Assembly (NCBI GenBank): GCA_958295785.1
Contig: OY282377.1
Location: 3,328,385 to 3,392,384, forward strand
DNA: 64,000 bases
Source of the DNA: an uncultured Latescibacterota bacterium
GTDB taxonomy: Bacteria > Latescibacterota > UBA2968
Direction of reading: 5' to 3'
Part shown: positions 7,801 through 15,140 of the stretch, piece by piece
How positions within the stretch are numbered: the stretch's first letter is position 1
Layout: every line of letters begins with the position of its first letter
The notes under the pieces: generated by a model
Seen by the model: only the letters and a program-made list of their open reading frames with translations
Told to the model about the DNA's origin: nothing
Databases searched by the model: none
Made by a program: the position numbers and the translations under genes

Positions 7801-8070
7801 AGCGATGACGCCGATGGAATCGCCTGTTGGTTCATCGACACGGACTATAACGAGGAGAGTTTTTTCGTGCGCCACGCCTACTTTCTCGGCGCGAGCGATC
7901 CGTACAAATCCCTCAAGACCACGCTCAAAGCCGAGATCGACCCAAACGCTTGGGCCACGCTGCACAGCGACACCTCGCGGCCGTTCGCCAAACCCAAATC
8001 CGGGCGCATCGCGGTCAAGGTGATCAACCACTTGGGCGACGAGGTGATGAAAGTGTTTCGGGTTTCATGA
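4888..8070 (+). CDS. mod: Type III-like Mod / beta-class N6-adenine DNA methyltransferase (1060 aa including a ~145-aa in-frame insertion)
   Basis: Motif IV [13 protein letters not shown], then a low-GC TRD, then motif X/[30 protein letters not shown]. Conserved C-terminal tail [55 protein letters not shown]. Confidence 0.8.
   Translation: [1060 protein letters not shown]
7361..7729 (+). CDS. four-helix-bundle protein (23S rRNA intervening-sequence protein family) nested inside the mod ORF in another frame
   Basis: RBS AAAGGAGAA then ATG. Translation YRERIGWQKSIDLTVRSYALMRRFPAEGRYGITSQMRRAASSIPANIAEGQARRTTREFLQSLGIARGSRAELETFL matches the family hallmark IPANIAEG. Lies entirely within 4888..8070 in frame +2. 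Confidence 0.75.
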   Translation: MTSLSSYRERIGWQKSIDLTVRSYALMRRFPAEGRYGITSQMRRAASSIPANIAEGQARRTTREFLQSLGIARGSRAELETFLTLCERLALIRREASENLLADCAEINKMLNALMKSRATRH

Positions 8071-8100
8071 CCGCTTGAGACATCCATCAAAGGAGTTGCG

Positions 8101-8400
8101 ATGCTCAACACTGCGTTGGCCGTTGTGAAAAACGGCAAAATCGAAACGATAGAACACATTGCGTTGTCCGAAGGCCAAAAAGTGCTGGTAACTCTGTTGC
8201 CCGACGATGCGACTTTCTGGCAAGAAGTTAGCCAACAAACGCTGAAACGAATTTGGGACAACAAAGAGGACGATGTATATGCCCAATTAGACGTCGCCAA
8301 ACGCCGGGAACATGTGGCTCAGTTGAAGAATTCTTTCCAAAAAATGAGCCGCGATATGGGGCCTCGTAAATGGACGCGGGAAGATCTCCATGCCCGATAA
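8101..8400 (+). CDS. hypothetical protein with DUF104-like (AF2212-type antitoxin-like) N-terminus
   Basis: RBS AAAGGAG. N-terminus LAVVKNGKIETIEHIALSEGQKVLVTLLPDD resembles the DUF104 pattern. Confidence 0.45.
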   Translation: MLNTALAVVKNGKIETIEHIALSEGQKVLVTLLPDDATFWQEVSQQTLKRIWDNKEDDVYAQLDVAKRREHVAQLKNSFQKMSRDMGPRKWTREDLHAR

Positions 8401-8404
8401 AGAT

Positions 8405-8430
8405 AGGGAGGTCAAAGAAATTTGACCTCC
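8405..8430 (+). terminator. perfect hairpin gggaggtcaaa-gaaa-tttgacctccc after 8101..8400
   Basis: 11-bp stem with a GAAA loop. The 3' tail is A/T-rich. Confidence 0.4.
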
Positions 8431-8627
8431 CTAAATTATTGTAAAATATTTGGATGCGGAAAATTAAATCCAATGTTTGGATGTTGCGATATTAGAATTT
8501 TCAGATATATGTTGACGAATGAGATGGATTTTGATACATTTCGTAAAATTCGACATTCAACGAGAAGTATCTAAAATATCTTGTTGTAAGTGGTGGTTAT
8601 TTTCCAGTACAGACGCGAGAGGATATC

Positions 8628-14415: not shown

Positions 14416-14501
14416 ATTGATAGAACCAACGATAGGCAGGCGAGAGGCAATGGCCCTGAAAAATTTTATGTACTGAACGGTATTGCCGTACACATTGCGA
14501 T

Positions 14502-14792
14502 ATGATCATTCGTTCTGTTCGACACAGGGGATTGCGCCAGCTGATAGAACACGACAATCCCCAATTCCTGCAACGCGACTTGGTTGACCGAGTACGCAAG
14601 ATATTGACGGCACTGATCTTGGCTGAGGATTTGGACAGTTTTATCGCCGATGCCCCTCAAGGCTGGCGCGTCCACCGTCTCTCAGGTAACCGTCAAGACG
14701 CCTGGAGCATTTCGATATCTGGCAATTGGCGGATCACGTTTGAAGAAGATACGGGCTATATTGACCGCTTAAACTTGGAGGATTACCACTGA
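14502..14792 (+). CDS. higB: HigB-type RelE/ParE-family toxin
   Basis: MIIRSVRHRGLRQLIEHDN ... GNRQDAWSISISGNWRITFEEDTGYIDRLNLEDYH matches the HigB killer-protein family. Toxin sits upstream of antitoxin, as expected. Confidence 0.7.
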   Translation: MIIRSVRHRGLRQLIEHDNPQFLQRDLVDRVRKILTALILAEDLDSFIADAPQGWRVHRLSGNRQDAWSISISGNWRITFEEDTGYIDRLNLEDYH

Positions 14793-15097
14793 TGGCAACC
14801 GATGGCCTCACAGTGACCATGACCCCTTCGCATCCGGGCGACTTCATTCGCACAGAGGTCATTGAGGAGTTGGGGGTAAGTGTGACGCGGGCAGCCGAGA
14901 TTCTGGGGGTTCGTCAAGCGACGCTTTCGGAGGTGCTAAACGGCCATGCCGCGCTATCGCCGGAAATGGCCCTACGCATCGAAAAGGCATTTGATATCAG
15001 CATGGATATGCTACTGCGAATGCAGGCTTGGTATGACGCCTCGCAAATGCGCGCCCGGGCAAATGAGATCGAGGTTCAACGGTACGCGTCCGCTTGA
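14792..15097 (+). CDS. higA: HigA antitoxin (XRE HTH)
   Basis: PSHPGDFIRTEVIEELGVSVTRAAEILGVRQATLSEVLNGHAALSPEMALRIEKAF matches HigA. Its start overlaps the higB stop (TGATG). Confidence 0.7.
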   Translation: MATDGLTVTMTPSHPGDFIRTEVIEELGVSVTRAAEILGVRQATLSEVLNGHAALSPEMALRIEKAFDISMDMLLRMQAWYDASQMRARANEIEVQRYASA

Positions 15098-15109
15098 TAG
15101 ATAGAGGCA

Positions 15110-15140
15110 GTGATGAAAGTATTTCGCGTTTCATGACCGC
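15110..15140 (+). repeat. direct repeat copy 3 of the mod 3' terminus plus 11 bp of native downstream flank (31 bp, 2 mismatches vs 8044-8074)
   Basis: gtgatgaaagtAtttcgCgtttcatgaccgc versus native gtgatgaaagtgtttcgggtttcatgaccgc. Confidence 0.75.

Follow-up and report, generated by a model that had tools for sequence, protein, structure and literature searches.

Copies of a methyltransferase gene end as candidate scars of serial defence-gene capture at a Type III-like restriction-modification operon

The window analysed here, a 64-kb stretch of Latescibacterota DNA to whose positions all coordinates refer, contains a restriction-modification (RM) locus in which the 3' end of the methyltransferase gene mod occurs in three direct copies among defence and toxin-antitoxin (TA) genes. 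On balance, our comparison of sequences favours the reading that these repeats are scars left as cargo accreted step by step, by recombination with its anchor in the conserved mod gene and an illegitimate joint at the other end, either by homology-facilitated illegitimate recombination (HFIR) or by an insertion that makes a long duplication of its target. Fragments of the ends of mod, or of the helicase gene that often follows it, were found at the same operon in 20 of 160 relatives.

Results

Three direct copies of the mod 3' end

An earlier note on this DNA had described the mod 3' terminus as present in three direct copies, and this was confirmed. An 83-nt repeat (7981-8063 versus 10511-10593) is identical at 81 of 83 positions, with mismatches at 7983 and 7997, and a 31-nt repeat (8044-8074 versus 15110-15140) is identical at 29 of 31, with mismatches at 8055 and 8061. 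Copy 1 is the functional end of mod, and copies 2 and 3 are remnants. In copy 3, mod coding sequence with its stop codon makes up 27 nt, of which copy 2 shares 20, and 4 nt beyond the stop follow; the copy is thus 31 nt long in total, and not 31 bp with another 11 bp of flank as the earlier note had it. The coding ends of the copies fall into two types, ...KVFRV-TAA in copy 2 and ...KVFRVS-TGA-CCGC in copies 1 and 3. A search of the whole window with the 31-mer, allowing up to three mismatches, gave two matches, and no others, where 0.00 were expected (100 shuffles).

The repeats do delimit serially arranged cargo, but not as a plain row of module borders. The outer pair, copies 1 and 3, encloses the entire 7-kb cargo, and copy 2 is an internal mod remnant; the 83-nt pair, copies 1 and 2, encloses 2.4 kb. 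The octamer CCGCTTGA, which begins directly behind mod, is the same as the last 8 nt of higA (15090-15097) and shares 4 nt (CCGC) with the 31-nt repeat. In the closest relative, L007 (see below), the orthologous small open reading frame (ORF) comes straight after a higA stop codon. The octamer at 8071-8078 is a probable microhomology joint, to be added to that of L010 (see below); its CCGC overlap at 8071-8074 is suggestive, and only suggestive, of such a joint. A scan for promoter and terminator consensus sequences gave no excess over shuffled sequence and no site within the repeat copies.

The copies differ by substitutions, their flanks differ, and copy 3 has a decayed orthologue in the independent chromosome L007, so that assembly duplication can be dismissed as their source. 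An assembly artefact or chance similarity is given practically no weight: the window probably derives from a metagenome-type assembly, and nothing further speaks for this explanation, whereas no matches were expected by chance and the same pattern recurs in 20 other loci.

History of the locus

L007, a complete Latescibacterota chromosome assembled from metagenomic data, shares res, mod, a module of an XRE-M78 gene and a PIN-like gene, higA and the right flank with the window at 80-93% identity. Its decayed copy-3 orthologue (~21363-21386) lies directly after higA, which indicates that copy 3 predates the split of the window and L007 lineages. Copy 3 would also be older than copy 2. L007 has no Dsr2 gene and only about 20 nt of higB, so that it has lost DNA at this place. 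The full history was not read from L007, because that locus is itself a mosaic, with a 688-nt segmental duplication of the 3' part of the PIN-like gene and higA and a 224-nt duplication around a 5.2-kb insert; only copy 3 is demonstrably ancestral.

In a distant genome (L039), 16 nt separate a full-length mod from a downstream Dsr2 homologue (56% amino acid identity), the same layout as that of copy 2 and the Dsr2-like gene in the window. This layout suggests that copy 2 is the tail of a mod gene that once stood directly before Dsr2, and its 98% identity to the present mod tail suggests that this former mod was of the resident lineage.

From these comparisons we infer three steps, given here in their most likely order. 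An old event would have left copy 3 behind higBA, as a scar common to the L007 lineage. Dsr2 would then have stood directly behind a mod gene ending in ...FRV-TAA. Finally, mod and Dsr2 would have been parted by the incoming XRE-M78/PIN module, in an event that duplicated 83 nt and left copy 2 before Dsr2, and such an insertion is the most likely origin of the present arrangement.

The operon and its cargo slots in relatives

At least 600 relatives of mod were matched in each of two collections, one of genomes and one of metagenomes. From these, 160 loci from many phyla, mostly at about 65% protein identity, were kept, and the ORFs of 78 loci were clustered. The conserved set in the clustered loci comprises res, mod and, in many, a UvrD-like helicase of about 690 aa, the gene for which is absent from the window locus and its Latescibacterota relatives. 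Mod has an N6/N4 methyltransferase domain, and Res in L016 has a ResIII helicase domain and a C-terminal RE_endonuc endonuclease domain (NF046055, 1389 bits). Canonical Type III systems such as EcoP1I and EcoP15I are two-gene operons with mod before res. That order was not seen; here res comes first, then mod and often the helicase gene. A literature search on the BPTD_3080 family, to which res belongs, found no paper.

By its domains and gene content, the locus is classed as a Type III-like RM operon with two slots that gather unrelated defence and TA genes. Slot 1 lies between res and mod, which are adjacent in 64 of 142 loci and not adjacent in 78. Slot 2 lies between mod and the helicase gene; the two are adjacent in 22 of 81 loci and separated by 0.2-7.3 kb in the other 59. 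The compact form, with three overlapping genes, was found on conjugative or mobilizable Pseudomonas plasmids, for example at NZ_CP091148.1 18967-27027. Slot genes are mostly singletons across loci, and the identifiable ones are defence or TA genes: Hachiman, Schlafen-fused pAgo with NsnABC, Schlafen/AlbA_2, AAA_21 with DUF4276, AAA_15-DUF4435, XRE-M78, Fic, HepT, PIN, MazF and STAND NTPases. The position behind mod is hypervariable, in agreement with the cargo variability among relatives that the earlier note had made a test of its proposal.

Scars of core-gene ends

Each locus was queried with its own mod 3' end and with the core proteins. Slot-2 scars were present in 20 of the 160 relatives, made up of mod 3' ends in nine and helicase 5' ends in 13, with both in two; the other 140 had none. 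The mod 3' fragments lie downstream of an intact mod (L006, L007, L010, L012, L021, L025, L030, L121 and L135), the helicase 5' fragments upstream of the cargo. Rarer are mod 5' fragments (L003 and L016) and res 3' fragments (L016 and, weakly, L001). All core-gene fragments are on the coding strand. They are 24-204 nt long, and some reach beyond the stop codon. Their left borders are spread over at least five positions, at the codons for ATLNSD, RPF, GRIAV, GDEV or VMKVF. The 224-nt duplication of L007, which encloses the 5.2-kb insert, starts 24 nt before the mod stop and crosses the spacer into the next gene.

The recent scars resemble the mod gene beside which they lie. Among 156 homologues, the resident mod was the closest to window copy 2 (97.6%) and copy 3 (92.6%) and to the scars of L012 (96%) and L025 (95%), against a mean pairwise identity of 77% between loci. 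This argues that the scars are duplicated or displaced ends of the resident lineage, not imported attachment (att) sites. The 17 scar-flanked cargo segments hold Hachiman, pAgo with Nsn, Schlafen, AAA_21 with DUF4276, AAA_15-DUF4435, HepT, PIN, MazF and a STAND NTPase, and no recombinase was found among their ORFs (a few short ORFs fell outside the scan).

Two loci carry chimeras of a helicase 5' end and a mod 3' end. L010 contains both parents of its chimera, whose joint falls within the 4-nt microhomology GGCC. The second chimera is in L135; the L010 joint is the only one of the two resolved to microhomology. These chimeras are the exact product expected of a deletion running from the helicase gene of a first operon copy to the mod gene of a second. 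They thus bear on another explanation, in which a second whole operon with other cargo is integrated in tandem by homologous recombination and its redundant core genes are later deleted down to their ends. Consistent with this, remnants of helicase 3', res 3' and mod 5' sequence are strewn upstream of the operon in L016, and in L025 a second mod survives as two separate pieces (aa 744-837 and 901-937). The remnants in L010, L135, L016 and L025 lean towards tandem integration with reductive deletion at those four loci. As the origin of the window repeats, we consider it rather unlikely: between the window modules there is no trace of res, the mod body or the helicase gene, in several cases (L012, L021) no more than 0.3-0.4 kb, with hardly any cargo, separates the scar from mod, and two events per case are required instead of one.

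A separate observation concerns L006 (~20490-20535), where a homopolymer of about 30 C lies directly upstream of the decayed mod 3' remnant. The run may be real, or it may stem from an error of assembly or sequencing.

Tests for site-specific integration at the mod tail

The earlier note had left the choice between site-specific capture with att-like duplication and homology-driven capture. The data fit the second, and the reading of the repeats as att sites is largely refuted. The C-terminal 22 aa of Mod are nearly invariant as protein, yet in 78 relatives the codon choice there is as free as elsewhere. Synonymous positions that vary freely leave no conserved DNA site in the mod tail, and a DNA-level att site was rejected on this ground. 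A conserved RNA element or tRNA as target was likewise rejected, since an Rfam search of 1-24000 gave no match at gathering score and the window contains no tRNA. Nor does the locus resemble integron cassettes: there is no integrase, and the window repeat search, in which no formal attC model was run, found no inverted repeats at the module borders, either transposon-like or attC-like.

A recombinase acting in trans was also considered. The repeats would then be attL and attR of integrase-less elements, comparable to cis-mobilizable elements (CIMEs) or satellites, and the mod 3' end would be targeted as islands target the 3' ends of tRNA genes. A reconstituted gene 3' end with a distal partial copy is the classical pattern of an integrative element, direct repeats do flank the insert, the three tandem copies resemble tandem accretion, and two scars begin at the same nucleotide. 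However, the other hallmarks, a linked tyrosine or serine recombinase and a fixed, DNA-conserved core shared by independent insertions, were not found. No recombinase was found in the scanned ORFs of the 17 scar-flanked segments or in positions 1-17500 of the window, where such enzymes had been thought worth looking for. The borders vary, the putative site is not conserved at the nucleotide level, the ends of other core genes have left similar scars, the joints include chimeras, one of them resolved to microhomology, and the window has no tRNA that could have served as a target. Integration in trans is therefore very unlikely.

Genes of the window locus

The features of the locus are collected in Table 1. 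Only the C-terminal 365 aa of Res are encoded within the window, at 92% nucleotide identity with L007 7114-8153. The GC content is about 0.46-0.50 in the cargo (about 0.47 in slot 1) against about 0.55-0.60 in mod and res.

Table 1. Features of the restriction-modification locus and its cargo, by window position
Feature	Position	Strand	Evidence or remark
res, 3' part; BPTD_3080 family restriction endonuclease; continues beyond window start	8-1105	+	NCBIfam NF046055, E=5e-110, profile positions 637-968; Pfam RE_endonuc
Cargo slot 1 (res-mod interval)	1188-4785	+	SDH-type ClpP-like protease 1188-2252; tandem duplication 2568-3619 / 3648-4785
mod, Type III-like N6/N4 DNA methyltransferase, 1060 aa, intact	4888-8070	+	Pfam N6_N4_Mtase (PF01555), 7e-33; PADLOC MTase_III PDLC03632, 1343 bits
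Copy 1, functional mod 3' end	7981-8074	+	83-nt unit 7981-8063; 31-nt unit 8044-8074 with TGA stop and 4 nt of flank
CCGCTTGA	8071-8078	+	Same as last 8 nt of higA (15090-15097); shares 4 nt (CCGC) with 31-nt repeat
99-aa small ORF	8101-8400	+	5' part similar to L007 17563-17772 (DUF104-like); 3' part similar to L007 18336-18457 (end of DUF6364-type antitoxin gene)
XRE-HTH and Peptidase_M78 (ImmA/IrrE) protein, RmrA-like	8628-9893	+	Pfam Peptidase_M78, 4e-16; HTH_31, 1e-11; PADLOC RmrA, 7e-33
PIN-like (PDC-S70) gene	9927-10421	+	In-frame TAG 10254-10256; L007 orthologue intact, 169 aa
Copy 2, 83-nt remnant of mod 3' end with own TAA stop	10511-10596	+	15 nt upstream of Dsr2-like start codon
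Dsr2-like SIR2 defence protein, 1267 aa	10612-14415	+	Pfam SIR2_2, 2.5e-18; PADLOC Dsr2, 622 bits; NF041819, 635 bits
higB	14502-14792	+	Pfam HigB-like_toxin, 7e-9
higA	14792-15097	+	TIGR02607 HigA, 8e-26
Copy 3, 31-nt remnant of mod 3' end (8 aa and stop plus CCGC)	15110-15140	+	
Truncated IS701-family transposase gene	15404-16117	-	NF049921, E=3e-76, profile positions 98-317 of 318; absent from L007

Between copies 1 and 2, the earlier note had placed a DUF104-like gene, an XRE-ImmA/IrrE fusion and a PIN gene (module A). All three are present, but the first and the last are not what they seemed. The small ORF is a fusion, brought about by a deletion, of two genes that stand apart in L007. 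The PIN-like gene reads TAG where the L007 orthologue reads CAG (Gln), and this premature in-frame stop marks it as a pseudogene. The presumed toxin of module A is thus predicted to be inactivated and its XRE-M78 partner intact. The content given for module B, a 1267-aa SIR2/DSR-like protein with HigBA, was upheld by Pfam, PADLOC and NCBIfam profiles. The SIR2 protein aligns with NF041819 over its full length (7-1232 to 6-1202 of 1215), and its 635 bits are below the NCBI equivalog cut-off of 1400 bits; judged by this profile score, it is best called Dsr2-like rather than Dsr2.

The truncated transposase gene of the insertion sequence (IS) family IS701 is the sole mobility gene in 1-17500; it is a later insertion outside the repeat system. 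As had been stated before, there is no integrase in this part of the window. With its PIN-like gene broken, its small ORF fused and an IS fragment present, the locus is a defence island in decay rather than an active mobile element.

Further observations in the window and in mod

The two halves of the tandem duplication in slot 1 (2568-3619 and 3648-4785; period 1080 nt) are about 92% identical, and the unit contains an 83-aa ORF without a known family and a CCDC90-like coiled-coil gene with internal repeats of 33 nt. Three related copies of the coiled-coil gene are present in L007.

Within mod, the segment 5666-6115 (GC 0.44) has no nucleotide similarity to the L007 orthologue, although the flanks on either side keep about 88% identity. 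Probably the target-recognition domain was swapped here. In L074, about 1.8 kb of inserted DNA (~12628-14408), which carries a 565-aa ORF on the opposite strand, interrupts mod, and the C-terminal 78 aa of Mod resume at 14408-14632. Candidates for this insertion are an IS element and a group II intron.

A gene for a 23S_rRNA_IVP protein, an Avd-like four-helix bundle, is nested in the mod ORF in the +1 frame (ORF 7334-7729; PF05635, E=1.4e-34). It lies within an insertion of about 450 nt (7304-7757) edged by 26-nt inverted repeats (7308-7333 and 7716-7741). By tblastn, the nested gene was found in 14 of 161 loci, with position, strand and frame unchanged and IVP identity down to 47%. The mod frame is open through it in the window and in the 12 genome-derived loci, a check that did not cover the metagenome loci L081, L082 and L156. 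The arrangement looks like a conserved dual-coding insertion. A literature search found no paper on it.

The housekeeping part of the window contains several families of dispersed repeats of 110-130 nt, 80-95% identical and in both orientations (23646-23765, 44606-44719, 62453-62575, 63106-63239), as well as others at 25563-25764, 18812-18849 and 34725-34756. They may be similar to miniature inverted-repeat transposable elements or to repetitive extragenic palindromic sequences. An internally repeated block at 42927-44355, with units of about 90-670 nt and 72-90% identity, is probably a repetitive protein-coding gene.

Discussion

The arrangement of the copies can be accounted for as follows. 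Each new module would use a homology anchor in mod, and its other side would be joined illegitimately, in many cases through a microhomology, some tens of nucleotides upstream of the stop codon of the resident mod. The displaced old mod 3' end would thereby be pushed downstream of the new cargo. The intact mod would be kept beside res, presumably because loss of the methylase in the presence of active Res would be lethal. The direct repeats could now be substrates for RecA-mediated loss or circularisation of modules.

As to how such a module would enter, the data fit HFIR and insertion with long target duplication equally. In accordance with HFIR arrays, there is an anchor gene with displaced fragments on the same strand, distal to newer cargo, and a microhomology joint in L010. 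In accordance with long target duplication, repeats longer than 30 bp (83 and 31 nt) surround inserts of less than 20 kb without mobility genes; unlike the known cases, however, the insert carries no R and M genes, and the RM operon is the target.

The similarity of the copies also bears on a Campbell-type integration, in which a module pops out as a circle with one mod 3' segment and enters the mod tail of its own or a closely related genome again through one RecA-dependent crossover, so that repeats flank it once more. In its favour, the repeats have the same orientation, a high similarity (98% and 94%) and a resident-like sequence, and 83 nt is long enough for RecA. Moreover, the cargo between copies 1 and 3 has the final 8 nt of a higA gene at its start and an entire higA at its end, as would a circle formed between two higA copies of an L007-like array. 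This course leaves the origin of the first repeat pair unexplained, repeats of 20-31 nt are too short for an efficient RecA crossover, and the helicase-mod chimeras need an illegitimate step anyway. We regard it as a possibility to be kept in mind, although an unlikely one.

Several points weigh against accretion by illegitimate joining at mod. In experimental HFIR, the illegitimate joint deletes recipient DNA more often than it duplicates it. The high identity of the repeats fits target duplication at a staggered break, or integration of a circle by single crossover, as well. Window copy 3 and a scar of L007 at 18143 share their start nucleotide (GTGATGAAAG); we estimate that about 1.7 such coincidences are expected among 45 pairs, and this one observation leans weakly towards site preference. 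No empty or one-module site of the same species was found, a metagenome scan giving, among the matches listed, relatives of about 57-69% identity and none closer than L007. L007 itself, at 80-93% identity, is rearranged, so that donor and recipient of the window events cannot be reconstructed from it, and microhomology at the joints of the module A end with copy 2 and of higA with copy 3 is not scorable without donor sequence.

Accretion at mod would be a more active process if the operon were an integrase-free platform for cargo capture. Its own nuclease and the UvrD-like helicase/exonuclease would then make breaks or resected ends at gene boundaries, so that defence cassettes are captured there by preference and stacked as in an integron, and the 22-aa mod tail would be kept partly as a pan-phylum homology anchor. 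We hold this to be quite improbable.

Sequential displacement based on HFIR has been proposed for effector-immunity arrays of the Vibrio cholerae type VI secretion system (T6SS) and for strings of orphan toxin-immunity genes at Rhs and contact-dependent inhibition (CDI) loci (Kirchberger et al. 2017, PMC5361080). As in those arrays, a conserved upstream gene serves as the anchor, new modules lie next to that gene, and what is older moves downstream without a change of orientation, in some cases along with displaced 3' ends of the anchor; growth is by repeated events and integrase-free. In contrast to them, the anchor here is the gene of an RM methyltransferase and, to a lesser extent, that of a helicase, the cargo consists of whole unrelated defence or TA systems instead of allelic toxin tips with immunity genes, and the displaced pieces, of 24-204 nt, are short and without function.

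At RM loci, insertions with long target duplication are on record (Furuta, Abe & Kobayashi 2010, PMC2853133). The likeness lies in inserts below 20 kb without mobility genes and in direct repeats of more than 30 bp, variable in length and often placed over a gene 3' end. There, the repeats are single-copy in uninserted genomes; for the window, no strict empty site of the same species was found. The roles are also reversed, since the RM system is the insert in the described cases, whereas here it is the RM operon that receives the inserts, which are other defence genes. Such insertions at RM loci are said to have been reported already by Nobusato et al. in 2000.

Accessory defence genes within RM and bacteriophage exclusion (BREX) operons, such as PrrC in the Type IC system EcoprrI and BrxU in a BREX island, are known, as is integrase-free, cassette-like replacement at the Escherichia coli immigration control region (PMC12707154). 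These cases share with ours the strain-variable presence of unrelated defence genes inside or behind an RM operon with no linked integrase; duplicated core-gene ends as footprints are not reported there. PrrC is functionally coupled to its RM system; here the cargo and the RM genes are paired by their position. With regard to the layout of the copies, a comparison can be made with integrative elements and CIMEs that accrete in tandem at the 3' ends of genes or tRNA genes, such as ICESt/CIME of Streptococcus thermophilus and the tycheposons of Prochlorococcus. There as here, three direct copies of a gene 3' end may bound two modules, with the proximal copy keeping the gene intact, but those elements need a site-specific integrase and a fixed core, and neither was found here.

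Displacement arrays, long target duplications and defence genes embedded in RM or BREX operons are thus already known. What appears to be new is their combination at one particular and very widespread operon, that of res, mod and the helicase gene, together with the reading of core-gene end fragments as markers for the borders of cargo. If serial insertion is true, alleles in which mod is followed directly by ACTCGTGCG, with one repeat copy at the joint, would be expected. The scars can be searched for systematically and mark module borders precisely, which would help to find new defence genes in the slots, where many cargo ORFs have no known family. The locus would then offer a sequence-level footprint of how a defence island grows without mobile-element genes, in which displaced gene ends serve as datable scars.

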